A DNA stretch of 64,000 nt, taken from contig CAZPQW010000002.1 of NCBI GenBank assembly GCA_964588985.1, forward strand, positions 1 to 64,000, written 5' to 3'. Made by a program: the position numbers and the translations under genes. Shown here one piece after another: positions 10,364 to 59,271 of the stretch. This stretch comes from an uncultured Solirubrobacteraceae bacterium. GTDB lineage: Bacteria; Actinomycetota; Thermoleophilia; Solirubrobacterales; Solirubrobacteraceae. The notes under the pieces were generated by a model. That model made no database searches, was not told where the DNA came from, and worked only from the letters and a program-made list of their open reading frames with translations. Every line of letters begins with the position of its first letter. Position 1 is the stretch's first letter.

Positions 10364-10373
10364 GCGGGAGGAG

Positions 10374-41998: not shown

Positions 41999-42198
41999 AG
42001 ACGTTCCCCTCTCACGTGGATTGCTTGCATCTGCGGGCGCCGAAGACCCCTTCGAAGACCCCCTGTCTATTAGAAGACAACCCTACAGCCGAGAAATCAC
42101 GCGGACATGAGAATTTATTTTCGATCTCGCGTACGCTGTCAGGCGTATTTCGGCGTGGATGCTTGGGTCATGGACGTTTCGGGCATAGGAGATGGAAC

Positions 42199-44277
42199 AT
42201 GAGGAACGCAAGGCTGCTGGGCGCACTCGCATCGGTCTCCGTAGGCGCATTCGCCGCGGCTGGAGCGGCCCAGGCCGCGCCGTCGCGCACGGTGGTGCAG
42301 AGCAGCGCACCCGCCGCCGCCTCGGCCAACGAGGTCGCCGCGACGCCCGCGTCCACGCCGATCGAATTCAGCGTGGGCCTGCGATTGAGCGACCCGGCAG
42401 GCGCGGTTGCGCTCGAGCGCGCGGTCTCGGACCCGGGCAGCCCCAGCTTCCACCGCTACCTGACCCCCGCCCAGTGGGAGCAGCGCTACTCGCCCACGCC
42501 GGCCTCGGTCCAGGCCGTCACGGCCTGGCTGAAAGCGGAAGGCATCGCCGTCGAATCGGTCCCCCCCGACCGCATGACCGTTCACGCGAGCGCATCGGCG
42601 GCCACGATCGAGCGCGCGTTCGGCACGAGCCTCGGCGAGTTCCGCCACCAGGGTCGCGTCGTGCGGCTCGCCTCGACGCCTCTGCAGGTGCCAAGCGGGA
42701 TCGCCTCGCTCATCACCGGCGTCACCGGGGTGGACCAGAGCCTCGCAACTCCAGGCGCCACCGGCGCCGACACCCGCCGTGCGGCGAAGGTCTCCGGGCA
42801 GGAAATCCCGCAGCCGCCCGGCTTCCGCAACGCCACGCCGTGCTCGCCCACGTACGGCAAGCAGCTCGACACCACCGATCCCGCGTACGGAGGCGGCTAC
42901 CCCACGCCGCTGCCATACGCGGTCTGCGGCTACATCCCGGCCCAGCTCCAGGGCGCCTACGGGCTCACGCCGAAGATCGCCGCCGGGATCGACGGCAAAG
43001 GCGTGACCGTCGCGATCGTCGACGCGTACGCATCGCCGACGCTGCTGAGCGACGCGCAGCACTACAGCCAGCTCAACCAGCCCACGCAGGTGCTCGGCAG
43101 CGGCCAGTTCAGTGAGCTGCTCAGCAAGTCCTTCAGCGACATCGAACTCTGCGAAGCCAGCGAATGGTCCGGCGAGCAGACGCTCGACGTCGAGGCGGTC
43201 CACGCGACAGCGCCCGGCGCGAAGATCCTCTACGTGGGAGCGAAGAACTGCATCGGCGGTCTCTACGACTCTGTGCAGCAGATCGTCGATGGGCACCTCG
43301 CGAGCATCGTCACCGACTCCTGGGGAGACGACGGCGGGGACCTGCTCGACTCGCCGCAGTCCCGGGAAGGCTTCGACAACGTCCTGCTGATGGCGGACGG
43401 GACGGGCGTCGGCGTGCAGTTCTCCGCGGGCGACGAAGGCGACGAGTTCGCCAACCTCGGGATGACGGTCGCGGACTACCCGTCCTCGAGCCCGTACGCC
43501 ACCTCGGTCGGCGGCACGAGCCTGCAGGTCGGTGAGCACGGCGCCCGCGTCGGCGAGCTGGGCTGGTCGACCTCGAAGAGCGTGCTCTGCACCCCGCTGT
43601 TGCAGCTCGAAGGCTACCCCGGCTGCAAGGCGGCAAAGCTCGGCACGTGGCTGTCGCCGGCGCCCGGCGCCTACCTCTACGGTGGAGGCGGCGGGACGAG
43701 CTACGAGTACGCCGAGCCGTGGTACCAGGAAGGCATCGTGCCCGCGGCGCTCGCCGAACGCAACAGCAGGATCACGGGCATCGCGAACAGGGTCGAGCCG
43801 GACATCTCGATGGACGCGGACCCGACGACCGGCATGCTCGTCGGCGAGACACAGGAATTTCCCGACGGCACCTACTACGACCAGTACCGGATCGGCGGGA
43901 CGAGCCTGTCCTCGCCGCTGTTCGCGGGCGTGATGGCCGACGCAGACCAGGCGGCCGGGGTCTCGCTCGGCTTCGTCAACCCACTTCTCTACAAGCTGGG
44001 GGCTTCTCCCGGCTCGGCGGCCGCCGACTTCTACGACGTGGTGCCCGGCGGCAAGCAGGCGCTCGTCAGGAACGACTACCTCGACGGCGTCGACGCGAAC
44101 GAAGGGACGATCACCTCGGTGCGCGTGCTCGACTACCAGGGCCGCGAGATCTTCTGCAGCGGCACGGGCAACTGCACCAAGCAGAAGGTCGCGCTCGACA
44201 CGGCGCCCGGGTTCGACTCGATGACCGGGCTCGGCACGCCGCGCTCGGCGCTGATCGCGGCGCTGGCCAAACCCTGA
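42199..44277 (+). CDS. Sedolisin (S53) serine protease with pro-kumamolisin domain
   Basis: Signal peptide, FHRYLTP pro-domain, EQTLDVE, SAGDEG, GGTSLSSPL, GFDSMTGLGTP. Confidence 0.93.
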   Translation: MRNARLLGALASVSVGAFAAAGAAQAAPSRTVVQSSAPAAASANEVAATPASTPIEFSVGLRLSDPAGAVALERAVSDPGSPSFHRYLTPAQWEQRYSPTPASVQAVTAWLKAEGIAVESVPPDRMTVHASASAATIERAFGTSLGEFRHQGRVVRLASTPLQVPSGIASLITGVTGVDQSLATPGATGADTRRAAKVSGQEIPQPPGFRNATPCSPTYGKQLDTTDPAYGGGYPTPLPYAVCGYIPAQLQGAYGLTPKIAAGIDGKGVTVAIVDAYASPTLLSDAQHYSQLNQPTQVLGSGQFSELLSKSFSDIELCEASEWSGEQTLDVEAVHATAPGAKILYVGAKNCIGGLYDSVQQIVDGHLASIVTDSWGDDGGDLLDSPQSREGFDNVLLMADGTGVGVQFSAGDEGDEFANLGMTVADYPSSSPYATSVGGTSLQVGEHGARVGELGWSTSKSVLCTPLLQLEGYPGCKAAKLGTWLSPAPGAYLYGGGGGTSYEYAEPWYQEGIVPAALAERNSRITGIANRVEPDISMDADPTTGMLVGETQEFPDGTYYDQYRIGGTSLSSPLFAGVMADADQAAGVSLGFVNPLLYKLGASPGSAAADFYDVVPGGKQALVRNDYLDGVDANEGTITSVRVLDYQGREIFCSGTGNCTKQKVALDTAPGFDSMTGLGTPRSALIAALAKP

Positions 44278-44403: not shown

Positions 44404-44503
44404 CGCCCTAGGGTTCCGCTGCCACCGCTGGCAGGTCTGGTCCGAGAGGGCGGGCCGGCACTTACATAGCCGAGCTGACACGGAGGGATAAAAGCCCGGG
44501 AGA
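44404..44503 (+). ncRNA. Guanidine-I (ykkC-yxkD) riboswitch aptamer
   Basis: CTAGGGTTCCG...CTGGTCCGAGAG...ACACGGAGGGATAAAAGCCCGGGAG consensus, upstream of cgdAB/carboxylase/atzF genes. Confidence 0.93.
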
Positions 44504-44527
44504 CATCGTGATCTCTCGGGCCTTTTT
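44491..44527 (+). terminator. Riboswitch expression-platform terminator
   Basis: GCCCGGGAGA-catcgtga-TCTCTCGGGC followed by CTTTTT; overlaps the aptamer 3' stem (ON-switch layout). Confidence 0.85.
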
Positions 44528-44546
44528 GCGTTGAAAGGTCGTCTTC

Positions 44547-45161
44547 TTGCAGCTGATCGGCAGGACAGCACTGATTCTGATCGATGTCCAAAAGGGCGAG
44601 GTGCTGCCCGGCGAGCACGGCATCGCGATCATGTCGGGCGGCGAGGAGAGGCACGAGCGCACACAGGCGCTGCTCGCGGCCGCACGGGCCGCGGGGATAC
44701 CTCCGATCTTCATCCAGGAGGTCCACAAGCGCTCGCTCGTCGACTTCGGTCGCGAGCTCGACGGTGAGGAGACGATTCACTGTCTCGAGGGAGATGTGGC
44801 GACCGAGCTGGCGGACGGCATCGAGCCGCTCCCCGAGGAGTACCTGATTCGCAAGCGCCGCTACTCGGCGTTTTTCGCCACCGAGCTCGAGCTGGTCTTG
44901 AAGTCATATGAGATAGAGACGCTCGTGTTGGTCGGCGCACTCACCGACGTGTGCGTTCACTACACCTTCGCCGACGCCCACCAGCACGACTACCACTGTC
45001 GCGTCGTCACGGACTGTGTGGGCGGTTCCTCCGACGCGGCGCACGAAGCCGCGCTGTCCGCGATGCGCTACCTGCAGCGCGACTGCCTGACGACCAGCGA
45101 CGAGGTGCTCGACGCGTTTGCCGAGATCGGCGCCCGGTCGAGCGTGGGTGCGCTCGCATGA
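44547..45161 (+). CDS. Isochorismatase-family cysteine hydrolase
   Basis: LIDVQ (Asp), IRKRRYSAF (Lys), TDVCV (Cys) triad; GAAAGG RBS before the TTG. Confidence 0.92.
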   Translation: MQLIGRTALILIDVQKGEVLPGEHGIAIMSGGEERHERTQALLAAARAAGIPPIFIQEVHKRSLVDFGRELDGEETIHCLEGDVATELADGIEPLPEEYLIRKRRYSAFFATELELVLKSYEIETLVLVGALTDVCVHYTFADAHQHDYHCRVVTDCVGGSSDAAHEAALSAMRYLQRDCLTTSDEVLDAFAEIGARSSVGALA

Positions 45162-46975
45162 GCATCATCGAGAGACGGCCCGCGCTGGAGGTGGAGGACC
45201 TCCATGTCACGTTCCGCTCTCCCGCGGGGGACGTCCAGGCGCTGCGCGGGGCGACGCTCACGGTCGGGCGCGGTGAGATCGTCGGCCTCGTGGGCGAGTC
45301 CGGCTCGGGCAAGACGGTGCTCGGGTTGACGGCGCTCGGCCTGCTGCCGCGCACCCCGCACCCGGAGGTGACCGGCACCGTGCGCCTCGACGGGGAGGAC
45401 ATGGTCGCGGCGAGCGAGGACGAGCGTCGCGCGCGCCGCGGCTCCTACATCACAGCCGTCTTCCAGGATCCGATGGGCTCGCTCAACCCGTCGATGCGCA
45501 TCCAGGCGCAGGTCGCGGAGGCCCTCGGCGGCGAGGGCGAGGGCGATCAGTCCGAGCTGATCCACGAACTGCTCGCCCACACGGGGATCCCCGAGCCGGA
45601 TGTGAAGGCCCGCTGCTACCCGCACGAACTCTCCGGCGGCCTGCGCCAACGGGTGATGATCGCGATGGCGCTCGCGCGCAACCCGCGTCTGGTCGTCGCC
45701 GACGAGCCCACCACCGCGCTCGACGTGACCGTCCAGGCGCGCGTGCTCGACCTGCTCGCCGGAGCCGCACGCGAGCGCGGGGTGGCGCTGCTGCTCGTCA
45801 CTCACGATCTCGGTGTCGCGGCCCGCGTGTGCGACCGCATCGCGGTGGCGTACGCCGGCAAAGTGGTCGAGATCGGCAGGGCCGCGCAGATCCTCTCGCG
45901 TCCGCGCCACCCCTACACCGTAGGTCTGCTCGCGAGCCGTCCGCGGCTCGACGGCTCGATCGCCGGCGGGGACCTGCCGACGCTTCCGGGCCAGCCGCCC
46001 GACCCCCGCAGCCCAGCCGTGGGCTGCGCGTTCGCCGCGCGCTGCCCGGTCGCCGACGAGCAGTGCGCCGCACCCGCTCCCGTCGTGCTCGAGGAGGGGA
46101 GACGGTGCGAGTGCCACCGCCCGGGGGCTCTCGAGACGTGGCCGCTCGCGCCGCTCCGAGTGCGCAGCGGCGAGCCGGTGGGTATCGGCCATCCGCTGCA
46201 CGTAGCCAACGGCTCGATCCCGATCCCCGCACTCGTCGTCGAGGACCTCGAATGTCACTTCCCGCGACCGCGCCGCCACCCACTCGCGTCCGCTCCCGAG
46301 CCGCTGCGCGCCGTCGCCGGAATCAGCCTCAGGGTCCCGGCCGCGGGCTCCCTCGCGATCGTCGGCGAGTCCGGCTCCGGCAAGTCGACGCTGCTGCGCG
46401 CGGTCGTCGGGCTGCTCACGCCCACCGCCGGAACCATCACGCTCGGCCCGGGCGCCTCGCCGCAGCTGATCTTCCAGGACGCGGGCGCCTCGCTCACGCC
46501 GTGGATGCCCGTCGGCGCGCAGATCTCCGAGCGTCTCGCGACGCTGAACGTGCCGCGCGCCGAGCGCGCCGCCCGCGTCGCGAGCACGCTCGAATCGGTC
46601 GGGCTGCCGGCCGAGGTCGCCGCGGTCGTTCCGCGCAAGCTCTCCGGGGGACAGCGCCAGCGCGCGGCGATCGCCCGCGCGATCGTCGTACCGCCCGCGC
46701 TGCTCGCGTGCGACGAGCCTGTCTCCGCACTCGACGTGTCGCTCGCCGCGCAGGTGCTCAACCTCCTGTGCGAGCTGCGCGCCACGCTCGGCATCGCGCT
46801 GCTGTTCGTCACGCACGACCTCGCCGCCGCGCGTGCGGTCGCCGACGAGGTCGCCGTCGTCAAGGAGGGCATCGTCGTCGAGCACGCCGCGACCGAGCAG
46901 ATCTTCATCTCGCCGCAGCACCCGTACACGCGCGAGCTGATCGCCGCCGTTCCCGACCTAGCGGAGGCCGCATGA
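45158..46975 (+). CDS. Peptide/nickel-type ABC transporter, fused double ATPase
   Basis: Two GESGSGK Walker A motifs, [28 protein letters not shown]. Confidence 0.93.
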
Positions 46976-47898
46976 GCCTCGCGGTGGATAGGCGCGTGAC
47001 GCCGGTGGCGGCCGTCGCCGCGGGGAAGCCCGAGTCGGTCGGCGGACCCCAGCCGCTGCGCCTGCGCCTGTGGCGCGGACGCCCGCTCGCCTCCGCGGGG
47101 AACCAACGCGCGGGGGTAGTCGCCGCATTGATCCCGGTCGGGGCGATGACGCTCGTCGCGCTCGCGGCGCCGCTGCTCGCGACGCACACCGCGACCGGCG
47201 TCACCACGATCGGGCCGCTGCACGCGCCCACCTTCAGCTACCCGTTCGGCACCGACGACATCGGCCGCGACGTGTTCTCGCGCGTGCTGTACGGGATCCG
47301 CGAGTCGTGGCTCGGCGCGATCGGGGTGATCGCGGTCGGCGCGCTCTTCGGCGGGCTGCTCGGCGCGCTCGCCGGCGCGATCGGCGGGTTCGTGGACACC
47401 GTGCTGATGCGCCTCACCGACCTGTTCCTCGCGCTGCCCGCGCCGGTGCTCGCGATCGCGGTGATCGCCTCGATCGGCCCGAGCCTGTTTCACACGCTGC
47501 TCGCGCTCTCGATCGTGTGGTGGCCGTGGTACGCGCGGATCGTGCGCGGCGAGGTGCGCGCGCTCGCGTCGCGGCCGCACGCCGAAGCCGCCCGTCTGGC
47601 GGGCGTCGGTCGCGTGCGGCTCGTGGTCCGCCACCTCGTGCCCGGGGCGCTCGCGCCGGTGATCGTGACGATGTCGCTCGACGTCGGCAACCTGATCCTC
47701 GCGCTCTCGAGCCTCTCGTTCATCGGCCTCGGTGCGCCGCCGCCGGCGCCCGAGCTCGGGGCGATGAGCTCTCAGGGGCTCGAGTACCTCTTTGGACACG
47801 CGTGGGTGCCGCTGGCCCCCGCCGCCGCTGTGGCGCTGCTCGCGCTCGCGGCCAACCTCATTGGTGATCACGCCAATCGGAGACTCGACAAAGGATGA
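46972..47898 (+). CDS. Peptide-type ABC permease (DppC-like)
   Basis: PFGTDDIGRDVFSR, EAARLAG, LSFIGLG..PELG; ATGA-coupled. Confidence 0.92.
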   Translation: MSLAVDRRVTPVAAVAAGKPESVGGPQPLRLRLWRGRPLASAGNQRAGVVAALIPVGAMTLVALAAPLLATHTATGVTTIGPLHAPTFSYPFGTDDIGRDVFSRVLYGIRESWLGAIGVIAVGALFGGLLGALAGAIGGFVDTVLMRLTDLFLALPAPVLAIAVIASIGPSLFHTLLALSIVWWPWYARIVRGEVRALASRPHAEAARLAGVGRVRLVVRHLVPGALAPVIVTMSLDVGNLILALSSLSFIGLGAPPPAPELGAMSSQGLEYLFGHAWVPLAPAAAVALLALAANLIGDHANRRLDKG

Positions 47899-47902
47899 CC
47901 AG

Positions 47903-49471
47903 ATGATCCAGCGACACCGAATCACCCTTGCCCTGATCGTCCTGATGGGCATGGCTCTCGCCGGCTGCGGCTCGGCCTCCACGACCTCGTCCACCAGCAC
48001 CACGGCGAGCACCACGAGCGGCGGCAGCGACATCCTGCGGATCCCCTATCTGGCGGATATGTCGGTCCCCGACCCCGACATCTTCTATGACATCGAGGGC
48101 AACTCGGTGATCCTGTCGACCTACGAAGGGCTGCTCACATACGCCCCCGGCACCACCAAGCTGGTGGGGGCGCTCGCGACGAGCTGGACGGTCGCACCAG
48201 ATCGACTCACCTACACCTTCCACCTGCATCCGGGCGTTCACTTCCACGATGGGACCGCGCTCACATCGAAGGCGGTCAAGGCGAGCTTCCTGCGTCGCCT
48301 CGCGGTCGGCCAGGCGCCGTCCTACATGCTCAAGCCGATCGCGTCGATGAGCACGCCCGACCCGCTCACGCTGGTCGTCAAGCTCAAACACCCGGTCAAC
48401 CCGTTCCTCGACTACCTCGCCTCCAGCTGGGGCCCGAAGATCATCGGCCCCGAAGCGATCGTCACCCACGCCGGCAGCGACGAGGGTCAGAAGTGGCTGC
48501 AGACGCACGACGACGGCACCGGTCCGTTCCGGCTGACCGCGTTCGAACGGGGCCGCCAGTACGTGCTCACCCGCTCGGCGAACTACTGGGGAGCGAAGCC
48601 GTTCTTCAAAGAGGTCCTGATCAAGATCACGCCCGACATCGGCACCCAGCAGCTCGAGCTCAAGAACGGTGGGGTGGACGCGATCCTTCACTCCTTCCCC
48701 GCCTCCGAACTCAGCTCGCTCCCGTCGAACGTGCGCGTCGAGGAGGACAAGTCGTTCCTGCGCCTGCTCCTGTACGTCAACACGCAGAAGCCGCCGTTCA
48801 ACGACCCGGCGGTGCGCGCGGCGCTGCGCTCCACGATCAACATCCCGCAGCTCGTGAGCGAGGCGTACTCGGGCACCGCGACCGCATCCACCGGCGCGTA
48901 TCCCGACGGTCTGCTGCCGAGCCAGCCGCCGCTCGAATACACGCCCAGCACCGCGGCCGCGGCCGCCGGTGTGAAAGCCGCGTCGACCAAGTCCATCACC
49001 CTCGGCTACACGGCCGACGAGTCCGGCGTGCAGCGACGCGTCGGCGAGCTGCTGCAGGCGGACCTCGAAGCCGCCGGCTGGCAGGTGACGGTCAAGGAGG
49101 TGCAGCTGCCGCAGGTCTACGGCTACATCAACGACCTCAAGGCCGCGCCCGACCTGCTGCTGCAGACCAACACCCCGGACGCGGCCAACCCCGACACGTG
49201 GGCGCGGATCGTCTTCTACTCGACCGGTGGCCTGAACTTCCTCGGCTACCACGACGCGAACGTCGACCGTCACCTCGACGAAGCCGTGAGCGCCGAACCC
49301 GCGAAGGCGACCGCGCTCTACCAGCAGGTGGGCAAGGAAGTGATCGAATCGAACGAGATCTTCTTCCTCGGCGACGTGAAGAACGTGTTCGTGCTCAACA
49401 AGTCCCTCTCGGGCGTCGAGCAGATCCCGGCCTACCCGTGGACCGTGAGCCTCGCGGCGCTGAAACGGTGA
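47903..49471 (+). CDS. Peptide-type (SBP family 5) substrate-binding lipoprotein
   Basis: Lipobox LAGC, YEGLL, LATSW..YTFHLHPGVHFHDG, GTGPFRL, PFNDPAVRAAL. Confidence 0.92.
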   Translation: MIQRHRITLALIVLMGMALAGCGSASTTSSTSTTASTTSGGSDILRIPYLADMSVPDPDIFYDIEGNSVILSTYEGLLTYAPGTTKLVGALATSWTVAPDRLTYTFHLHPGVHFHDGTALTSKAVKASFLRRLAVGQAPSYMLKPIASMSTPDPLTLVVKLKHPVNPFLDYLASSWGPKIIGPEAIVTHAGSDEGQKWLQTHDDGTGPFRLTAFERGRQYVLTRSANYWGAKPFFKEVLIKITPDIGTQQLELKNGGVDAILHSFPASELSSLPSNVRVEEDKSFLRLLLYVNTQKPPFNDPAVRAALRSTINIPQLVSEAYSGTATASTGAYPDGLLPSQPPLEYTPSTAAAAAGVKAASTKSITLGYTADESGVQRRVGELLQADLEAAGWQVTVKEVQLPQVYGYINDLKAAPDLLLQTNTPDAANPDTWARIVFYSTGGLNFLGYHDANVDRHLDEAVSAEPAKATALYQQVGKEVIESNEIFFLGDVKNVFVLNKSLSGVEQIPAYPWTVSLAALKR

Positions 49472-49478
49472 GCCGCTG

Positions 49479-50480
49479 ATGCCCACGCTCCTCGCCCAAC
49501 GCCTACTCGCCCTGGTAGCGGTCCTGTTCGGGCTGGCGGTGATCGTGTTCGTGCTGCAGGCCGTGATCCCGGCCGACCCGGCACGGGCGATGGTCGGCGC
49601 CAGCGCACCGAAGTCGGTGGTGGAAGCCAAGCGCCACGAACTGGGCTACGACAAACCGCTGCCGCAGCGGTTCCTGGAGTACGTGGACCGCCTCCTCCAC
49701 GGCAACCTCCAGGAATCGCTGCGGACGCGCAACCCGGTGAGCAAAGACCTCGCGACGTTCGCCCCGGCGACGCTCGAACTGGCGCTCGCCGCGGCGGCGA
49801 TCGCGGGGGTGCTGGGCGTTGGGCTCGGGCTGGCGCTCGTCGGCGCGGGACGGGCGGCGCGGCTGCTGCGGATCGTGCTGATCAGCGGGGCGTCGGTGCC
49901 GACGTTCCTCACGGCGCTGCTCGCGATCCTGCTGTTCTACTCGACGCTTCACCTGCTGCCGGCGTCGGGGAGGGTGGACGACACGCTCGTGTTGCCGTCC
50001 GGGCCGACGAAACTGCTGCTGGTCGACTCGCTGCTGCACGGCGAGCCGAACCTGCTGTGGAGCACGCTCACGCACCTGCTGATGCCCGCGCTCACGCTCG
50101 CGCTGCTGCCGGCGCTCGCGATCGCGCGCACGCTTGCGACGTCGTGCGAGAAGGTGATGCGCGAGGACTACGTGCGCACGGCGCGCTCGAAGGGGTTGAG
50201 GGAGCGCAGGGTGCTGCTGCGCCACGCGCTGCGCAACGCGAGCGGCCCCGCGCTGACGATGAGCGGGCTGCAGTTCGGCCTGCTGCTCGGCGGGATCGTG
50301 GTGGTCGAGCAGATCTTCGCGTGGCCCGGCCTCGGCCTCTATCTCGACCAGTCGATCGCCTATGCGGACTTCCCCGCGATCACCGGCACGACGCTGCTGC
50401 TCGGCACCGCGTACGTGCTGGTGAACTTCCTCGTCGACCTCTCCCAGGCATGGGCGGACCCGCGCATCAGGACGGTTTAG
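49479..50480 (+). CDS. Peptide-type ABC permease (DppB-like)
   Basis: PADPA, PATLELA, DYVRTARSKGL, VEQIFAWPGLG, DPRIR. Confidence 0.93.
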   Translation: MPTLLAQRLLALVAVLFGLAVIVFVLQAVIPADPARAMVGASAPKSVVEAKRHELGYDKPLPQRFLEYVDRLLHGNLQESLRTRNPVSKDLATFAPATLELALAAAAIAGVLGVGLGLALVGAGRAARLLRIVLISGASVPTFLTALLAILLFYSTLHLLPASGRVDDTLVLPSGPTKLLLVDSLLHGEPNLLWSTLTHLLMPALTLALLPALAIARTLATSCEKVMREDYVRTARSKGLRERRVLLRHALRNASGPALTMSGLQFGLLLGGIVVVEQIFAWPGLGLYLDQSIAYADFPAITGTTLLLGTAYVLVNFLVDLSQAWADPRIRTV

Positions 50481-50482
50481 AA

Positions 50483-51208
50483 ATGTCCGCTGCCACAGGG
50501 GCACAACCGCTCTACCAGGACGAGCTCCCATCCGCGGGCGCTCGCTCGTGGACGTGCCGTCGCGGCACCGCGCTCACTCTGACCGACCTGGCGGGCGGGG
50601 CGAACGTGTCCGCGCTGCTCTACAGCGCAGCGAACCCGCTCGAGCGCTACTGCATGCCCGACACGCTCAAGGCGCAGCACGTCAGCCGCCTCACCGCGGG
50701 TGTTGCGCTGTATTCCGACATGGGGCGCGTGCTCGCCTCGATCGTCGAGGACGGATGTGGCTGGCACGACACCATCTCCGGCCACGCCACGGCCGAGACG
50801 GTCGCCTCGAAGTGGGGAGCAAACACGTACCAGCAGGCGCGCAACGAGTGGAGGCGCAGTGCACGAGAGGCGTTCCTCGTGGAGCTCGCAAAGCACGGCC
50901 TTGGACAGCGTGACCTACATCCAAATATTAATTTCTTCTCCAAGGTGGAGGTCGAGGACGAGGAGACCGGCGCGCTCAGTTACGTCGCGGGCAACTCTCC
51001 CGCCGGCTCGCACGTGACGCTGCGCTTCGAGCTGGACACGCTGATCGTGCTGTGGAACGGCCCGCACCCGCTCGCCGAGGAGTGGCTTGCGCGACCGGTG
51101 CGCGTCACGCTCGAGCACTTCCCGACGGCCGGCGCCGACGACGCGGTTCGCACGAGCTGCGAGGAGAACGAACGCGGCTTCGCGGTCACCGAGGCGGCGC
51201 TCGCGTGA
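50483..51208 (+). CDS. cgdA: Urea carboxylase-associated DUF1989 protein (carboxyguanidine deiminase subunit A-like)
   Basis: [48 protein letters not shown]. Confidence 0.9.
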
Positions 51209-51852
51209 GCGTGTCCGTGCAGAGCGAGGAGCGCTCCGAGCTCGCCGCGCGGCTCGTCCTAGACGTGCCCGCCGGCGAGGGCTTCGCGCACGAGCTCGCC
51301 GCGGGGGAGACGCTTCGGATCGTCGACCTGCACGGCAACCAGGCCGTCGACACGCTGTTCTTCGACGCGCACGACTACGCCAACCGCTACAGCGCGGTCG
51401 ACACGCTGCGCGAGCAGGGCGGCGTGTACCTCGGGCTCGGCTCGCGGCTGCTCGCGCTCGACGGGACGGCGCTCGTGACGATCGTGGGGGATACGTGCGG
51501 ACGCCACGACACGCTCGGCGGCGCCTGCTCGCAGGAGTCGAACGTGGTGCGCTACGGCGAGCACACCCGCCACATGCACGCGTGCCGCAACACGTTCCTC
51601 GCGCAGGCGCGCGAATGGGGGCGAGGACTCGACAAGCGCGACCTCACCGCGAACGTGAACTTCTTCATGAACGTGCCGCTCACACCCGAGGGTGGCCTGG
51701 AGTTCGTCGACGGCGTCTCAGCGCCCGGGAAGTACGTCGAGCTGCGCGCCGAGCGCGACACGCTCGTGCTGATCTCCAACTGCCCCCAGCTCAACAACCC
51801 CTGCAACGCGTTCGACCCGACCCCGGTGCGCCTGCTCTTCTGGCCGTCATGA
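51205..51852 (+). CDS. cgdB: Urea carboxylase-associated DUF1989 protein (carboxyguanidine deiminase subunit B-like)
   Basis: [46 protein letters not shown]. Confidence 0.92.
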
Positions 51853-53816
51853 GCGCGATCGAGGTCCTCGCGCCGGGCGCGTTCACGACCGTCCAGGACT
51901 GGCCTGGGCGCACCGGCTTCTGGGAGGTCGGCGTGCCGCCGTCCGGCCCGATGGACAGCCGCTCGCACAGGATCGGCAACCGCCTGCTCGGCAACGCCCC
52001 CGACGCGGCCGGCCTCGAGGTCACGCTGACGGGCCCGAAGCTCCGCTTCCTCGTGGACGCGACCGTCGCGATGACGGGCGCGCCGCTCGCCGTCACGCTC
52101 GACGGCGAGACAGTCCCGCAGTGGACCGCGCTCGACGTTCCCGCCGGGGGAGTGCTGTCGCTCGGCACGATCCGCGGCGCCGGGATGCGCGCGTACGTGA
52201 CGGTGCGCGGCGGCATCGCGGGCGCACCGGCGATGGGCAGCCGCGCGGTCTTCTCCCCGGCTGGTCTCGGGGGCGGGCAGCTGCGCCGGGGCGAGCTGCT
52301 CGCGCTCGCCGGCGGCGAGACGCGGGGGAGCGCATCCGAGTTTGCTGTCAGCCCGCCCGCGTTCTCCAACGAGGTCAGCCTGCGCGTCGTGCTCGGCCCG
52401 CACGGCGCCCCCGAGCTCCTCACACCCGACGGCCTCGTGGAGCTGCTCGACGCGGACTGGGTCGTGGACCCGCACTCCAACCGCGCGGGGGTGAGGCTCG
52501 CCGGCCCACGGCCGGGCTGGTCGCGATCGGACGGCGGCGAAGCGGGCCTTCACCCGTCGAACATCCTCGACAGCGCATACAGCGTCGGCACGGTGATGCT
52601 CACCGGCGACATGGCGGTGATCGTCGGGCCGGATGGCCCGAGCCTCGGCGGCTTCGCAGCGTTCGCGCAGGTGATCCAGGCCGACCTGTGGCGCCTCGGG
52701 CAGCTGCGCGCTGGCGACCGCGTGAGACTGCGGGCCGTCGGCGTTCGCTACGCGGCCGCGCTGCACGCCGACGCGGAGCGCGAGATCGAAGGCGGCGGCG
52801 TGGGGCTGCGTGCGCCGGTCTCGACGAACGCCCTCAAGCCCACCGTCGAGTTCGACCGCGCCTACGACGGCGCGCACGGACTCGCGACGTTCCGCCGCGC
52901 GGGCGAGCGAGCGGTGCTGATCGAGTTCGGCGATCCGGTGCTCGACCTGCGCTCGCGGGTGCGCGCGCAGACGCTCCGGATCGCGCTCGAGGAGCTCCAC
53001 ATCGACGGCGTGCTCGACATCACCCCGGGCGTGCGCTCGCTGCACATCCAGCACGACCCCGACACGCTCGCCGCGGAGAGCCTGATCGACGCGCTCGCGC
53101 GCCTGGAGTCCTCGCTGCCGGCGCCCGAGCGGTCGGCGATCCCCGGGCGCACGGTGCACATGCCGCTGAGCTGGGGCCACAGCGAGGTCCTGCGGGCGGT
53201 CGGACGCTACGAGAGCGTCCGCGCGGGCGCCCCCTGGTGCCCCGACAACGTCGACTTCATCCGCCGCATGAACGGCCTGCCCGACGAGCGCGCGGTCCGC
53301 GAGATCGTCACGAGCGCCGCGTATCTGGTGCTCGGGCTGGGCGACGTCTACATGGGCGCGCCGGTGGCGGTGCCGCTGGATCCGCGCCACCGGCTCGTCA
53401 CCACCAAGTACAACCCTCCGCGCACCTGGACGCCCGCCAACGCGGTCGGGATCGGGGGAGCGTTCCTGTGCGTTTACGGCGTCGAGGGGCCCGGCGGCTA
53501 CCAGCTCGTGGGCCGCACCACGCCCGTGTGGCACGCCGGCGACGACCCGCCGTGGCGGCTGCGCCACTTCGACCAGCTGCGCTTCGAGCTCGTCGAGGAG
53601 GACGAGCTGGAGGAGCTGCGCAGGCTGAGCGAGCGCGGCGCGTGGGCGCCGCGGACCGAGCCGACCGCCTTCTCGCTGGTCGAGCACGAGCACTTTCTGG
53701 AGGAGCACCGCGAGGAGATCGCGGCGTTCACCGCGCGGCGCGACGCCGCGTTCGCCGCCGAGCGCGACGCGTGGAGCATGACCGAGACCGCCACCACGGC
53801 AAAGGTCGCGGCGTGA
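51849..53816 (+). CDS. Urea/guanidine carboxylase carboxyltransferase module only (no BC, no BCCP)
   Basis: [92 protein letters not shown]; 655 aa; no MKM. Confidence 0.92.
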
Positions 53817-55546
53817 AGCTCGACATCGCCACGCTTCTCGCCGGCTACCGCGACGGCTCCACGAGCCCATCGCGCGTCGCGCAGGAGTTGATCGACCGGC
53901 TTGCCAAGCCACAGGAGCAGCAGCTATGGATCGCACGGGTGAGCGACGAGGCGCTGCGCGCGGCGGCCGCCGCGCTGGACGAGGCCGACCCGTCGCTTCC
54001 GCTCTACGGCATCCCGTTCGCGGTGAAGGACAACATCGACGTCGCCGGCATGCCGACCACGGCCGGCTGCCCGGGCTTCTCATACGCCGCCACGCGCACC
54101 GCGACGGTCGTGCAGCGGCTCCTCGACGCCGGCGCGATGCTGATCGGCAAGACGAACATGGACCAGTTCGCCACCGGCCTCGTCGGTACGCGCAGCCCCT
54201 ACGGCAGCTGCTCCTCGGTGGCCGACCCGGCGCGCATCAGCGGAGGCTCGAGCTCCGGCTCGGCGGTGGCGGTCGCGCTCGGTTACGCGTCGTTCGCGCT
54301 CGGGACAGACACCGCCGGATCGGGGCGCGTCCCCGCGGCGTTCAACGGCCTCGTCGGCGTCAAGCCCACACGGGGCCTGCTCAGCACCCGCGGCGTCGTG
54401 CCCGCGTGCGCGAGCCTCGACTGCGTGTCGGTGTTCACCGGCACCGTCCCCGACGCCGCGCGCGTGCTCGACGTGGTGGCGGCGTTCGACCTGGAGGATC
54501 CGTGGAGTCGACCCGAGGCCGTGTGCGACTCGCCGCGGCGTGGACGGATCGGCGTGCCGCTCGTCGGCCAGGTCGAGCAGGAGGAGTCCGCGGCGACGCT
54601 CGCGTGGGCGCAGGCGGTCGAGCGCGCCGGCAACCGCTGGACGCTCGTGGAAGTCGACATCGACCCGCTCCTGAAAGCAGCGCCGCTCCTGTACGAGGCG
54701 TGGGTCGCGGAGCGGACCGCCGACCTCGCACCGCACATCGAAGCGGAGCCAGAGGGCCTCGACCCGACCGTCGCCGCGATCGTGCTCGGCGGGCGCGAGA
54801 CGAAGGCGACCGACGTGTTCCGCGCGCAGCACCGCCTGCGCGAGCTCGAGCGCGCGGCCGCCTCGATCTGGGAGCGGGCCGACGCGCTGCTGCTGCCCAC
54901 CACCGCTCTGCATCCGACGCACGCCGAGGTCGCAGCCGATCCGGTGGGGACGAACAGCCGCCTCGGGCGGTTCACGAACTTCGTCAACCTGATGGACCTC
55001 TGCTCGCTCGCGCTGCCGGGCGCGCCGCGGCCCGACGGGCTGCCGTTCGGCGTGACGCTGCACGCGCCCGCCCACCACGACCGCCGGCTGCTGGAGCTCG
55101 GCTGCGAATGGAGCTCGCAGCCGGCCAGCGTCGAGCTGCCCGGCGTCGTGAGGCTCGCGGTGGCTGGCGCCCACATGACGGGGATGCCGCTGAACGACCG
55201 CCTCACCGAGCGCGGCGCGCGGCTCCTCGGCACTGCTCGCACGGCGCCCAGCTATGAGCTGTACGCGCTCGCGAACGGCGGCCCGATCGCGCGCCCCGGC
55301 GTCGTGCGCGTCGAGGACGGCGGCGCGAGCATCGAGGTCGAGGTGTGGGAGCTGTCTCGCGCGGCGCTGGGCGCGATCGTCGAGGAGGTGCCGGGCCCGC
55401 TCGCGATCGGCCACGTCGAGATGCTCGACGGCACGCGGATCTGCGGGTTCGTGTGCGAGGGCTACGCCGTCCACGGCGCAACCGACATCACCGCCCACGG
55501 CGGCTGGCGCGCATACCTCGAGGCGCCCGTGACGACGCCGGCGTGA
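53813..55546 (+). CDS. atzF: Allophanate hydrolase
   Basis: AVKDNID, DQFATGLVGTRSPYG, GGSSSGS, GTDTAGSGRVP, TNFVNL, C-domain GAHM..LN and GGWRAY. Confidence 0.95.
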   Translation: MKLDIATLLAGYRDGSTSPSRVAQELIDRLAKPQEQQLWIARVSDEALRAAAAALDEADPSLPLYGIPFAVKDNIDVAGMPTTAGCPGFSYAATRTATVVQRLLDAGAMLIGKTNMDQFATGLVGTRSPYGSCSSVADPARISGGSSSGSAVAVALGYASFALGTDTAGSGRVPAAFNGLVGVKPTRGLLSTRGVVPACASLDCVSVFTGTVPDAARVLDVVAAFDLEDPWSRPEAVCDSPRRGRIGVPLVGQVEQEESAATLAWAQAVERAGNRWTLVEVDIDPLLKAAPLLYEAWVAERTADLAPHIEAEPEGLDPTVAAIVLGGRETKATDVFRAQHRLRELERAAASIWERADALLLPTTALHPTHAEVAADPVGTNSRLGRFTNFVNLMDLCSLALPGAPRPDGLPFGVTLHAPAHHDRRLLELGCEWSSQPASVELPGVVRLAVAGAHMTGMPLNDRLTERGARLLGTARTAPSYELYALANGGPIARPGVVRVEDGGASIEVEVWELSRAALGAIVEEVPGPLAIGHVEMLDGTRICGFVCEGYAVHGATDITAHGGWRAYLEAPVTTPA

Positions 55547-56574
55547 AAGCCCGCTACCACCACCTTCCGGCCACCCCCGAGAACGTCCACTGGGGATACT
55601 TCGACCACGCGCTCGAGCCGGTGCTGACGGTCTCCTCGGGCGATCTGGTCGCTATCGAGACGCTCACCCACCACGCGGGCGACGCGCCCGACCTGCTGAT
55701 GGACGCGGGCATCGAGCGCGTGTTCGAGCAGGTGCAGGAGCGCGGGCCCGGGCCGCACCTGCTGACCGGGCCGATCGCGCTCGCCGGCGCGCGCCCGGGC
55801 GACGTGCTCGAAGTGGAGATCCTCAGCGCCGAGCCGCGATTGCCGCACGGCTCCAACCTCGCGGGGCACTGGGGCGCGCTGTACGAGGACTTCGCCAAGG
55901 AGCGCGTGACGATCTTCGAGCTCGACCTCCAGGCGATGCTCGGACGCGCGCTGTTCGCGTTCGACTGGCAGACGACCCCGCTCGTGGACTCGCCGGGGAC
56001 GATCGTCGTGCCCGGCAGCGTCGCGCGCGAGGCGGCGCTTGAGGGCGTCACGATCCCGCTGCGGCCACATCTCGGGACGATGGGCGTGGCGCCCGCGGCG
56101 AAGGGGAGGCACTCCTCGGTCCCGCCGGGCGAGCACGGCGGCAACATCGACAACTGGCGGATCGGCGCGGGCGCGCGGATGCTCTACCCGGTGCAGGTGC
56201 CCGGCGCCCTGCTCTCGCTCGGCGACCCGCACGTCTCCCAGGGCGACGGCGAGATCAGCGGCACCGCCCTGGAGGCGTCGCTAGACACGGTCGTGCGCCT
56301 CACGCTGCGCTCGGACATCACACTCAGCGGGCCGCTGCTGGAGACGCCGACCGAGCTGATGGTGCACGGGTTCGGCGACGACCTCGACGAGGCGATGGGA
56401 GTTGCCGCGCGGCGCACGATCGAGCTGCTGGGCTCCCGCTTCGGGCTCAGCCGCGACGACGCCTACTCCTTCTCGAGCCTCGCGGTGGACTTCACCGTCA
56501 CGCAGGTCGTCGACTCCCGCCAGGGCGTGCACGCCCGCATCGACAAGCGCTGCTTCCCCTTCGCCGGCGCGTGA
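55543..56574 (+). CDS. Acetamidase/formamidase family protein
   Basis: VHWGYFD, PHLLTGPI, GGNIDN, GDPHVSQGDGEISGTALE. Confidence 0.92.
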   Translation: MKARYHHLPATPENVHWGYFDHALEPVLTVSSGDLVAIETLTHHAGDAPDLLMDAGIERVFEQVQERGPGPHLLTGPIALAGARPGDVLEVEILSAEPRLPHGSNLAGHWGALYEDFAKERVTIFELDLQAMLGRALFAFDWQTTPLVDSPGTIVVPGSVAREAALEGVTIPLRPHLGTMGVAPAAKGRHSSVPPGEHGGNIDNWRIGAGARMLYPVQVPGALLSLGDPHVSQGDGEISGTALEASLDTVVRLTLRSDITLSGPLLETPTELMVHGFGDDLDEAMGVAARRTIELLGSRFGLSRDDAYSFSSLAVDFTVTQVVDSRQGVHARIDKRCFPFAGA

Positions 56575-56978
56575 TCGAGTCCTGGACGTTCACCCCCGCC
56601 GAAGGCGTCCCGCCGCGGGTCGCGCCGTTCGCGCACGCGACCGCCACCGGCGAGACGCTCTACGTGACCGGCCAGATGCCGACGGGCCTCGACGGCGAGC
56701 TGATCGCCGGCGGGGTGGTCGAGCAGACCGATCGGGTGATGCGCAACCTCGCGCGCGTGCTCGAGATGCTCGGCGGCGGGCTCTCCGACGTGGCGCAGAC
56801 GCGCGCCTACCTGCTGCACTGGGACGACTACGCGGAGTTCAACACCGCCTACGAGCGGTGGTTTCCCGAGCGCCTGCCGAGCCGCACGTGCGTGGGCGTG
56901 AGTGGGCTCGCGGCGGGCGCGCTCGTGGAGGTCGACCTCGTCGCGTGGCGCGCGGGAGGCTGGGCCGCCGCGCCATAG
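56571..56978 (+). CDS. RidA/YjgF family protein
   Basis: PFAHA, YVTGQMP, FNTAY, PSRTCVGV..LA.GALVEVD. Confidence 0.92.
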   Translation: MIESWTFTPAEGVPPRVAPFAHATATGETLYVTGQMPTGLDGELIAGGVVEQTDRVMRNLARVLEMLGGGLSDVAQTRAYLLHWDDYAEFNTAYERWFPERLPSRTCVGVSGLAAGALVEVDLVAWRAGGWAAAP

Positions 56979-56988
56979 CGGTTCGGGG

Positions 56989-57822
56989 CTACTCGGGCAC
57001 CGAGTGCGTGGGCGCCGCCACGTCCGGCGCCAGCTCCCTCAGCAACTGTGGCCACACCTCGGGGTCGTGCCCCGGGATCAGCCGGTAGCCGCGCTCGGCT
57101 GCGATCGCGTTGAGCCGGCGGATGGCGGGGAGCGTGTCCTCGGCCTGGCAGTGGACGAACCCGCCGACAGCCAGCTCGCGCTCGAAGTTCTCCGTCAGAT
57201 CGCCGGCGTCGAACGCGAACACGTAGCCGCTCCCGTCGGGCATGTCGATCACGAAGCTCTGATGCCCCGGCGTGTGGCCGGGTGTGAGCACAGCGGTGAT
57301 CCCGGGCGCGAGCTGTGTGTCGCCGTCCATCAGGCGCCAGTCGATGTCGGGGTCGTCGTAGTCGATCCGGAACATGCCGTGGCGCTCGGGGAAGGGGTGA
57401 TCGGCGAGCCCGTACTCCAGCTCAGACCGCTGCACCCACACGGGCACGCTCGGATCGAACAGCCGCAGTCCGCCAGCGTGATCGTTGTGCAGGTGGGAGA
57501 GATAGATACGCGTGACGTCCGCGAGCCGGACGCCGTGCGCCGCGAGCGCGTGCTCCAGGGGCTCGCCGTCGCCATCGGGCAGGATCGCGGTGATGTCGTG
57601 GTTACGCCCGTGCAGACGTTCGCGCAGCGGGAGGTCGCGGATCAGGGCGGTGTTGAAGCCGGTGTCGAGCAGCGTCCAGCCGTCGTCGGTGTCGAGGAGG
57701 ACCGCGGGGACCGGCTCGATCAACATCGCGCCGGATTCCTCGCCGTGGACCGAGTAGGACTTCGGCAGGCGCTCCCAGCCGAGGATCAGGGGAATCACCC
57801 TGCGCACGCTCGTCTCGCTCAC
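56989..57822 (-). CDS. N-acyl homoserine lactonase-family metallo-beta-lactamase
   Basis: LLDTG, SHLHNDHAGG, TPGHTPGHQS, FDAGD, PGHDP. Confidence 0.88.
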   Translation of the reverse strand: MSETSVRRVIPLILGWERLPKSYSVHGEESGAMLIEPVPAVLLDTDDGWTLLDTGFNTALIRDLPLRERLHGRNHDITAILPDGDGEPLEHALAAHGVRLADVTRIYLSHLHNDHAGGLRLFDPSVPVWVQRSELEYGLADHPFPERHGMFRIDYDDPDIDWRLMDGDTQLAPGITAVLTPGHTPGHQSFVIDMPDGSGYVFAFDAGDLTENFERELAVGGFVHCQAEDTLPAIRRLNAIAAERGYRLIPGHDPEVWPQLLRELAPDVAAPTHSVPE

Positions 57823-57900
57823 ACGCTGGATCTTAGGCGTGTACGCCGGCGGCGTTCGTGTCAACCTCGGACTCGGTGGGGTCTGTCACCCTGTCTGGAG

Positions 57901-59271
57901 GTGAACGCCCTCCCTCCCGGACCGACGGAGTCCCCCGCGGTGCAGATCACGCGCTGGCTGGTGCGCCCGATCGCGTTCATGGAGTCCTGCAGGCGACGCT
58001 TCGGCGACGCGTTCAGCGTGCGCTTCCCGGGCTTCGAGCGGCCGATGGTGATGCTGTCCGACCCCGAGGCGATCAAAGCCCTCTACACCGCGCACGAGCA
58101 CGGCCTCCCGCCGGGGCGCACGGTCACGCTGCTGCCGGTGATGGGGCCGAGCTCGATCCTGCTGCTGGAGGGCGGCGAGCACCTCGCGCGACGCAAAATG
58201 ATGCTGCCGCCGTTTCACGGCGCGCGGATGCGCTCGTACGAGTCGATCATCCGCGAGACAACCGAACGCCAGATCGACACCTGGCCCACTGATCAGCCTT
58301 TCGCGCTCCACCCCCACATGCAGGCGATCACGCTCGAGGTGATTCTCGAGGCGGTCTTCGGCGTGACCGACCAAGCGCGCGGCGAGCGGCTGCGCGAACG
58401 CCTGCCGATGCTGCTGCACGAGACATCCTCCACGGCTATCCAGTTCCGCTTCATCCTCGCCAGGCGCCTCGGAGTCGGCGACCCGCTGGCCCGGCTGAAG
58501 GAGATCACCGCGGGCATCGACGAGCTGCTGCTCGCCGAGATCTCAGACCGCCGCTCGGACCCCCTGCTGGACGAGCGCGAGGACATCCTCTCGCTGCTGA
58601 TCGTCGCGCGCTTCGACGACGGCGGCGCGATGAGCGACCGGGAGCTGCGCGACCAGCTCGTGACGCTGCTGCTCGCCGGCCACGAGACGACCGCGACGGG
58701 GCTCGCGTGGACGTTCGACCTGCTGCTCCGTCACCCAGCGGCGCTCGCGCGCCTCACAGCCGAGGTCGATGCGGGCGAGGACGTCTATCTGCGCGCGGTC
58801 GTCAGCGAGTCGCTGCGGCTGCGCCCGGTCGTGCCGCTCGCCGGACGGCGCCTGGCCTCAGAGCTCCACGCGGGGGAGTTGAACCTCCCCGCCGGCGCGG
58901 ACGTCACGCCCGCGATCTGGCTAACACACACGAGGCCGGACCTGTATCCCGAGCCGTACGCGTTCCGCCCCGAGCGCTTCGTGGAGAACCCGCCCAGCGG
59001 CTATGGGTGGATCCCGTTCGGCGGCGGCGTGCGGCGTTGCCTGGGGGCGAGCTTCGCGGAACTCGAGATGCGGGTGGTGCTCGAGACGATCCTGCGCCGC
59101 AGCGTGCTGGAGTCGGCGAGCGCGCGCGCGGAACACCCCACGCGCCGCAACGTGACCCTCTCACCGCGCAAGGGCACGCGGGTGCGCAGCCACGGACGGG
59201 TGGGCGCGCCCACTCGTGTGATCCGCGACGCGGACGGACTGAGCGCGGAGCCGGCTGGCGTCAGCTCGTAG
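57901..59271 (+). CDS. Cytochrome P450
   Basis: LPPGP, AGHETT, ESLR, FRPERF, PFGGGVRRCLG. Confidence 0.95.
   Translation: MNALPPGPTESPAVQITRWLVRPIAFMESCRRRFGDAFSVRFPGFERPMVMLSDPEAIKALYTAHEHGLPPGRTVTLLPVMGPSSILLLEGGEHLARRKMMLPPFHGARMRSYESIIRETTERQIDTWPTDQPFALHPHMQAITLEVILEAVFGVTDQARGERLRERLPMLLHETSSTAIQFRFILARRLGVGDPLARLKEITAGIDELLLAEISDRRSDPLLDEREDILSLLIVARFDDGGAMSDRELRDQLVTLLLAGHETTATGLAWTFDLLLRHPAALARLTAEVDAGEDVYLRAVVSESLRLRPVVPLAGRRLASELHAGELNLPAGADVTPAIWLTHTRPDLYPEPYAFRPERFVENPPSGYGWIPFGGGVRRCLGASFAELEMRVVLETILRRSVLESASARAEHPTRRNVTLSPRKGTRVRSHGRVGAPTRVIRDADGLSAEPAGVSS

Follow-up and report, generated by a model that had tools for sequence, protein, structure and literature searches.

In the 64,000-nucleotide stretch of DNA analyzed here (the window; positions 1 to 64,000 of the forward strand of contig CAZPQW010000002.1, assembly GCA_964588985.1, from an uncultured Solirubrobacteraceae bacterium), the urea/guanidine carboxylase family is represented by a protein that consists of the carboxyltransferase (CT) part only. 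This protein, termed P0001, is encoded at 51849-53816 (+ strand) in an operon headed by a Guanidine-I riboswitch, and it lacks both biotin modules of the family, the biotin carboxylase (BC) and the biotin carboxyl carrier protein (BCCP). P0001 keeps the catalytic residues of the CT active site and belongs to a clade in which the residue that separates guanidine carboxylases from urea carboxylases is replaced by methionine or isoleucine. The reading that we favor, to which we give somewhat less than an even chance, is that P0001 acts as a CT subunit supplied with carboxybiotin in trans by the housekeeping AccA/BCCP system.

A carboxyltransferase without biotin modules

The frame at 51849-53816 translates without a stop into 655 amino acids, in which Pfam detects solely the CT_A_B (residues 27-295, 264.3 bits) and CT_C_D (residues 347-568, 132.6 bits) domains; the same scan returned no BC domain and no Biotin_lipoyl domain. 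Against the NCBIfam urea carboxylase model TIGR02712, which has 1201 positions, residues 2-650 align with model positions 447-1114 and score 768.7 bits, under the equivalog cut-off of 1303.85. Thus, the parts of the model that correspond to BC (approximately 1-446) and BCCP (approximately 1120-1201) are missing, and the CT domain with its subdomains A-D, as in urea/guanidine carboxylases, is present. The gene is closely fitted between its neighbors: it starts in an ATGA (51849-51852) that overlaps the stop codon of the upstream CgdB gene, and its own stop codon lies in a GTGA (53813-53816) that contains the GTG start of the allophanate hydrolase (AH) gene, both junctions being read directly from the DNA. 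An earlier interpretation made from the letters of the window and their open reading frames (the sequence-only reading) had described a 655-amino-acid frame comprising the CT alone, four-base overlaps on both sides, and intact CT motifs. All of this held up: the Pfam scan and the TIGR02712 span agree with the first point, the overlaps are as given above, and HPSN (residues 235-238) and LGDVYMGAP are found in the translation. Its placing of the protein ends was right as to the CT-only extent; however, the protein does not end at "...AAERDAW", as 14 further residues follow. P0001 is therefore confirmed as the carboxyltransferase part only of a urea/guanidine carboxylase.

Conserved catalytic residues and a changed specificity residue

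P0001 matches the urea carboxylase of Kluyveromyces lactis (PDB 3VA7) over residues 3-631 with an E-value of 7.9e-141, and the alignment places K520, D499, Y543 and M250 at K1605, D1584, Y1628 and position 1330 of that enzyme, respectively. We take Y1628, D1321 and Y1324 of the K. lactis enzyme to have functional roles. K520, D499, Y543 and the HPSN motif are each present in all 23 rows of the clade that contains P0001. Among 38 full-length enzymes, 77 columns reach 90% identity or more, and the clade retains 74 of them. The lysine that corresponds to K520, K1605, acts as general base and is essential according to the literature (PMC5770610).

The published criteria for guanidine carboxylases are an aspartate at K. 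lactis position 1584 and another at position 1330, the latter not shared by urea carboxylases (PMC11410670); aspartate is described as marking guanidine carboxylases and asparagine urea carboxylases (PMC12186494). P0001 has the first of these residues (D499) and a methionine (M250) at the second, a substitution that the sequence-only reading did not mention. By the published signature, P0001 would be classified as neither a guanidine carboxylase nor a urea carboxylase. Within the clade, position 250 is methionine in 20 of 23 rows and isoleucine in the other three, and never aspartate or asparagine; the other intact enzymes in the alignment have aspartate, asparagine or serine there. In a survey of the best 80 genome loci, four have methionine, all of them CT-only operons of the Solirubrobacteraceae type, and 76 have aspartate. 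Among these 76 Asp-type loci, BC and BCCP directly flank the CT in 59, and neither of them is seen in three. Besides position 250, the clade is distinguished by few columns (251, where phenylalanine is replaced by leucine, and 259, 294, 433 and 109). The presence of methionine or isoleucine at the Asp/Asn specificity residue throughout a clade is new here. Because of this change, the acceptor is expected to be bound differently from that of the canonical guanidine and urea carboxylases, and it may be something other than plain guanidinium.

A CT-only clade under selection

All of the best 120 homologue clusters listed (61-76% identity) are 614-708 amino acids long and contain the CT Pfam domains alone, and those with names are all from Solirubrobacteraceae. 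In a tree of 92 CT regions, for which we used every eighth of P0002-P0120 (15 of 119) and dropped matches that did not span the query from residue 12 or earlier to residue 600 or later, P0001 falls in a 23-row clade (SH-aLRT 100) whose members are all CT-only. The phyletic distribution of the protein is patchy: of the 29 other genomes of the family, 6 have urea-carboxylase-type matches, the two genomes of the same genus have none, and the remaining matches are PxpC/PxpB-like. The order CgdA-CgdB-CT is found at all five of the family loci compared, with the AH gene next in four (at L034 it was not found). No BC or BCCP was found within approximately 8 kb on either side of eight related CT-only loci. 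Five CT-only genomes have two to five BC genes each, all of them at least 30 kb from the CT locus.

The CT protein is 58-66% identical to its counterparts at four other Solirubrobacteraceae-type loci, and its operon neighbors are 56-80% identical to theirs. The dN/dS values obtained with NG86 are 0.37-0.58 for the CT, within the range of the operon neighbors (0.24-0.74); because extreme GC3 bias inflates NG86 values in all genes, only the comparison with neighbors is meaningful. Synteny and intact frames across many genomes rule out a gene-call or assembly artefact, and residue conservation together with the dN/dS comparison rules out a pseudogene in decay. Thus, the view that the loss of both biotin modules was selected is supported. 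The sequence-only reading had also argued for selection rather than decay, and the CT-only clade, the catalytic positions kept in 23 of 23 rows and the neighbor-like dN/dS values bear it out. It had named three things that would speak against it, an architecture unique to this assembly, relaxed selection and a BC/BCCP partner already described for this clade, and we came across none of them.

A single biotin carboxylase in the genome

The genome (G000; 3.41 Mb in 48 contigs, rated 95.9% complete, with the window at C2:1-64000) has exactly one match to Biotin_carb_C, in a 606-amino-acid AccA-type BC-BCCP protein on contig C8, together with four acyl-CoA-type Carboxyl_trans genes. Since there is a single BC, carboxybiotin, if it is used by the CT, can come from AccA alone in the genome as assembled. 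No second urea carboxylase homologue was found in G000, where CT_A_B has one match. The sequence-only reading had reported no BC, biotin carrier or PxpA gene in the window, and domain searches agree: no BC or biotinyl domain was matched there, the nearest biotinyl domain on the contig being at C2:151907, outside the window, and LamB/YcsF (PxpA) has no match anywhere in the 95.9% complete G000.

Two potential carriers other than AccA itself are encoded in this genome. A free BCCP of approximately 70 amino acids (C19:18963-19205; L009:1498-1752, - strand) adjoins an enoyl-CoA hydratase gene, and its orthologues, with 66-94% identity, are present in approximately 58 of 61 genomes of the family (a count that includes the unpublished G507). 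As this BCCP is nearly universal in the family, we rejected its co-distribution with the operon as a clue. Outside the window, at approximately C2:150311-152146 (L134:3312-5147, - strand), lies a gene for a 611-amino-acid BCCP-CT fusion, in which an N-terminal biotinyl domain is joined to an acyl-CoA-type Carboxyl_trans domain. This fusion, in a genome with a single BC, is an unusual one and could be another carrier candidate.

A guanidine riboswitch operon

The operon (44547-56574, + strand) is tied to guanidine by the Guanidine-I riboswitch at its head, which the sequence-only reading missed. The aptamer (RF00442; 44397-44504, + strand) scores 82.8 bits (gathering score 63), covers the full model (1-107) and ends 43 bases before the first operon gene; it is the single Guanidine-I match in the whole genome. 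A search of G000 for Guanidine-III returned no match, and its control likewise matched nothing. A terminator-like hairpin followed by a T tract, found by a consensus scan at 44494-44530 (+ strand; 10-pair stem at 44494-44521, then CTTTTTGCGT), overlaps the 3' end of the aptamer and is presumably the expression platform of a transcriptional ON switch.

We count eleven genes in the operon, the CT-only gene being the ninth; the order as itemized (IHL hydrolase, ABC ATPase, permease, SBP_bac_5, permease, CgdA, CgdB, CT-only, AH, FmdA-like) gives ten, with the CT-only gene eighth. There are ten junctions, all of them tight, and six are four-base overlaps. The operon begins with a 204-amino-acid isochorismatase-like (IHL) cysteine hydrolase (44547-45161, + strand; PF00857, 142.3 bits), whose best NCBIfam match, BiuH, scores 80.1 bits, far under the cut-off of 370; members of the IHL family include guanylurea, biuret and triuret hydrolases (PMC9800807). 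The IHL gene is joined by an ATGA overlap to that of an ABC ATPase of the Opp/Dpp/Nik type with two nucleotide-binding domains (45158-46975, + strand; ABC_tran in two stretches, and oligo_HPY), and another ATGA overlap leads to a permease of the OppC/NikC type (46972-47898, + strand). The importer is completed by a family-5 solute-binding protein (SBP_bac_5; 47903-49471, + strand; PF00496, 209.6 bits) and a permease of the OppB/NikB type (49479-50480, + strand), both permeases being assigned from profile matches.

The pathway genes follow. The CgdA-like protein (CgdA here; 50483-51208, + strand), a DUF1989 protein also known as urea amidolyase associated protein 1 (UAAP1), scores 269.1 bits with TIGR03425 (cut-off 205.95), and the CgdB-like protein (CgdB here; 51205-51852, + strand), the second such DUF1989 protein (UAAP2), scores 307.4 bits with TIGR03424 (cut-off 284.7). 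The CgdB gene has a GTGA overlap with the CgdA gene in addition to its ATGA overlap with the CT gene. The AH (53813-55546, + strand), with Amidase and AH_C domains, scores 701.6 bits with TIGR02713 (cut-off 511.05), so that CgdA, CgdB and AH all exceed their NCBIfam equivalog cut-offs. The last gene, for an amidase-like protein of the FmdA/AmdA family (55543-56574, + strand; PF03069, 105 bits), has a GTGA overlap with the AH gene; the NCBIfam FmdA model gives it 70.5 bits, far under the cut-off of 500. The riboswitch, CgdA, CgdB and AH are thus found together, as in operons of the guanidine carboxylase pathway. On the other hand, the ATP- and biotin-dependent carboxylase that belongs to this pathway was found neither in nor near the operon, the genome's sole BC being on another contig. 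The operon is flanked upstream by a gene for a pro-kumamolisin/subtilase-type peptidase (41527-44277, + strand) and downstream by a long open reading frame (56902-59271, + strand) whose C-terminal part is a cytochrome P450.

Several traits of the operon recur at Met/Ile-type loci. A Guanidine-I riboswitch heads 7 of the 10 (the window, L031, L034, L054, L055, L056 and L058), and an IHL hydrolase gene is present in 6 of the 10 versus 1 of 83 other loci; because the Met/Ile loci are kin, this association is a pattern rather than a statistic, and the counts overstate independence. In addition to the window, 4 of the 80 genome loci have an Opp/Dpp-type importer with SBP_bac_5, and each of these is of the Met type. 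L030 and L031 have an APC permease in place of the Opp system, and isoleucine occupies the specificity position at L030, L032 and L033. At L054 (Met type), an FmdA-like gene (9953-10969) that is 75% identical to window positions 55543-56574 directly follows the CT gene, and no AH was found within 8 kb downstream. At L034 (G013; 7765-8496), the sequence after a Guanidine-I riboswitch is 77% identical to the second permease of the window, but in its C-terminal half only, and overlaps the start of the CgdA frame; this stretch looks like a remnant of an importer deletion.

CT-only forms in other lineages

CT-only genes with CgdAB upstream are also found in a second actinobacterial family (L047-L049), which two named records (L126 and L129) identify as Nocardia. 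These two Nocardia loci and a gammaproteobacterial metagenome-assembled genome (MAG; L097) have CT-only genes of the Asp type together with CgdAB and AH, and the latter has two Guanidine-I riboswitches. The order CgdA-CgdB-CT is found at 17 of the 17 CT-only loci examined besides the window (L030-L034, L047-L049, L054-L056, L058, L097, L126, L129). In a second tree, built from 36 chosen rows of the earlier set and 33 of the 80 genome loci, L097 falls inside a group of full-length proteobacterial and other enzymes (support 96) and outside the actinobacterial group (support 98). The gammaproteobacterial loss is therefore clearly a separate event. The Solirubrobacteraceae and Nocardia forms are separate in the free tree, but the approximately unbiased (AU) test allows a single origin (p 0.332), and we therefore make no claim of independent loss in these two lineages.

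Other splits of the enzyme exist. Four homologues (P0123, P0124, P0126 and P0135) have a CT preceded by a degenerate BC remnant of 220-430 amino acids and no BCCP; all four keep aspartate at the specificity position, and a 31-bit trace of Biotin_carb_C is seen in P0123. These forms may be intermediate stages of loss. Two others (P0146 and P0205) start at the CT, end with a BCCP and are without BC, which would be a different split of the same enzyme. The operon at L058 is syntenic with the Solirubrobacteraceae-type operon (59-75% identical) and its CT falls inside the Solirubrobacteraceae-type clade; the contig is labeled as a Bifidobacterium breve MAG, an organism label that looks wrong for it.

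Carboxyl source and acceptor

Of the three hypotheses of the sequence-only reading, borrowing of AccA is the most consistent with the findings, namely the single BC, the retained CT active site and a 2026 structure of a mycobacterial CT docked on AccA3 (see below). According to this model, guanidine would bind the riboswitch and the eleven-gene operon would be transcribed. AccA would charge a housekeeping carrier with the use of ATP and bicarbonate, the carrier being the BCCP domain of the single AccA-type BC-BCCP protein or the small free BCCP. Carboxybiotin would reach the CT in trans, K520 would serve as the general base, and the carboxyl group would be passed to the nitrogen substrate; CgdAB would convert the product to allophanate, from which AH would release ammonia. 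P0001 would then be the carboxyltransferase of a guanidine-induced nitrogen-scavenging pathway, its own BC and BCCP having been lost in the lineage. In this scheme, the supply in trans and the identities of the carrier and the acceptor are what we infer. Supply in trans is also the most economical reading. It is favored further by a pathway that, apart from the carboxylase, is complete and under guanidine control, by the lack of another route in the genome and of a dedicated partner near related loci, by the same loss in lineages that keep aspartate, and by the sharing of one alpha subunit among several carboxyltransferases in actinobacteria. A complex prediction between the CT (36-row alignment A1) and the BCCP domain of AccA (P0271, residues 528-606), run without controls, scored 0.00 against a mark of 0.32 and speaks on neither side of the question of binding.

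Several points weigh against this model. We found no physical or co-evolutionary link from the CT to AccA or any BCCP. A trans-biotin mechanism leaves M250 unexplained, and weaker guanidinium binding would be expected with this residue. The AccA BCCP is normally tethered in acyl-CoA carboxylase complexes, and its efficient sharing is not a given; the free BCCP is present with or without the operon and was not found in the operon carrier G107. G000 is a draft of 48 contigs, and a BC gene might be hidden in an assembly gap. Finally, the mycobacterial precedent, MSMEG_0435-0436, is described as inhibitory and without urea carboxylase activity (PMC13012033).

A rather unlikely possibility, in our estimate, is that the CT is a biotin- and ATP-independent partner of CgdAB to which guanidine binds together with CO2 or bicarbonate, or to which carboxyguanidine itself binds, and which makes, holds or passes on carboxyguanidine; the irreversible deiminase and AH steps would pull the unfavorable equilibrium, and one ATP per guanidine would be saved. 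The carboxylating species in biotin carboxyltransferases is thought to be CO2 freed from carboxybiotin. Both biotin modules are gone, with no dedicated replacement found in G000 or in the flanks of related loci; the ATGA overlap couples translation of the CT gene to that of CgdB; the conserved gene order extends to all 17 other CT-only loci examined; and a hydrophobic residue, next to the phenylalanine-to-leucine change, stands in for a charged specificity residue. However, retention of 74 of 77 conserved columns, and of K520 in every clade row, is unexpected if biotin is not used, although these residues could serve substrate binding instead. The thermodynamic argument is likewise something that we only infer, and no biotin-independent enzyme is known in the close family of P0001. 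PxpBC, a homologue, depends on PxpA, and this partner is missing from G000; a PxpBC-like mechanism is thus weakened, all the more as P0001 scores far under the PxpB and PxpC cut-offs. The more specific proposal, that the Met/Ile CT, acting with CgdAB, needs neither biotin nor ATP to carboxylate guanidine or to capture carboxyguanidine, and that downstream hydrolysis drives the reaction, we consider unlikely. The sequence-only reading had suggested that the CT binds, channels or decarboxylates carboxyguanidine made by the upstream hydrolase, which misreads the neighbors: the UAAP1/UAAP2 (CgdAB) family consumes this compound. The sole operon product that could plausibly make it is the IHL hydrolase at the head.

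We also doubt, to much the same degree, that the Met/Ile clade acts on a compound of the guanylurea, biuret or substituted-guanidine type rather than on guanidine or urea, an explanation that can be combined with either carboxyl source. The Opp-type importer would bring in the compound, the IHL and FmdA-like hydrolases would process it, and guanidine would be a signal or side product. The changed specificity residue fits this explanation, being present in 23 of 23 clade rows and at all four of the clade's further loci from the genome set, as do the IHL genes (6 of 10 Met/Ile loci versus 1 of 83 others) and the Opp/Dpp importers (the window and 4 of 80 genome loci, all Met type); guanylurea and biuret hydrolases are among the described IHL enzymes (PMC9800807). 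Yet this riboswitch class is described as guanidine-specific (PMC12508155), CgdA and CgdB pass as equivalogs of the subunits of carboxyguanidine deiminase, the clade is not uniform in these traits (isoleucine in L030, L032 and L033; an APC permease in L030 and L031), and kinship among the loci inflates the counts. It seems very improbable that the CT takes no catalytic part in the pathway and instead binds the biotin of the AccA BCCP to modulate or sequester acyl-CoA carboxylase in response to guanidine. Such a role in an actinobacterium is indicated by cryo-electron microscopy (cryo-EM) and activity data for MSMEG_0435-0436 (PMC13012033). However, MSMEG_0435 is described there as being without residues needed for urea carboxylase, whereas P0001 keeps D499, K520 and Y543 and is far closer to the K. 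lactis enzyme (E 7.9e-141) than to MSMEG_0435 (E 1.3e-28); moreover, if no carboxylation took place, guanidine would yield no substrate for the CgdAB and AH of the operon.

Comparison with known systems

According to published descriptions, the guanidine carboxylase pathway requires a carboxylase that contains biotin and depends on ATP (PMC11410670, PMC12186494). In the literature covered, which included few subscription papers and no supplements, we found no CT-only guanidine or urea carboxylase and no free CT subunit of the urea carboxylase type. The loci described here indicate that in an actinobacterial family, in some Nocardia and in at least one proteobacterium, the riboswitch, CgdAB and AH were kept and the carboxylase was reduced to its CT. 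If carboxybiotin is supplied in trans, this CT type can work as a free subunit, and the docking of a mycobacterial CT on AccA3 would acquire a catalytic meaning; if the enzyme works without biotin, a biotin enzyme would have given rise to one that needs none, and guanidine assimilation would become cheaper. Surveys that use the published aspartate signature would miss the Met/Ile genes, and the capacity of soil Actinomycetota to use guanidine may therefore be underestimated.

The closest known system is guanidine/urea carboxylase itself (TIGR02712; K. lactis urea carboxylase, PDB 3VA7 and 5I8I), with homology extending along the entire CT of P0001; compared with the CT of full-length actinobacterial enzymes, its identity is approximately 50%. 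The operon shares CgdA, CgdB, AH and the riboswitch class with the guanidine carboxylase pathway. On the other hand, P0001 lacks four defining features of the family: the BC, the BCCP, a score above the model cut-off and the aspartate at position 1330. P0001 descends from guanidine carboxylase and probably works like it. The PxpABC 5-oxoprolinase (KipA/KipI family) is similar in having two CT-type domains without biotin modules of its own. However, it works with PxpA, and G000 has no LamB/YcsF match; P0001 scores 120.4 with PxpC (cut-off 500) and 50.9 with PxpB (cut-off 145.55) and is not a PxpBC.

Carboxylases with a shared alpha subunit, such as actinobacterial AccA with several AccD proteins or the BC, BCCP and CT of the E. 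coli type, serve several CTs with one BC-BCCP, and G000 likewise has one BC for four Carboxyl_trans genes; however, the CT subunits of these systems belong to the crotonase-fold Carboxyl_trans family, which is unrelated to P0001. The mycobacterial pair MSMEG_0435-0436 offers the nearest structural precedent. These stand-alone CT_A_B and CT_C_D proteins bind two AccA3 BCCP domains in the mycobacterial LCC complex according to the 2026 cryo-EM study, with biotin in a carboxylase-like site, "positioned to participate in a carboxylation reaction" (PMC13012033). Like P0001, they are actinobacterial CT_A_B/CT_C_D proteins without a BC or BCCP of their own. The similarity between them is weak (E 1.3e-28) and confined to the CT_A_B part. 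MSMEG_0435-0436 are two small proteins, described as being without the catalytic residues or activity of urea carboxylase and as lowering propionyl-CoA carboxylase activity (PMC13012033), whereas P0001 is a single chain, closely related to true carboxylases, with its catalytic residues kept and its gene in a catabolic operon.

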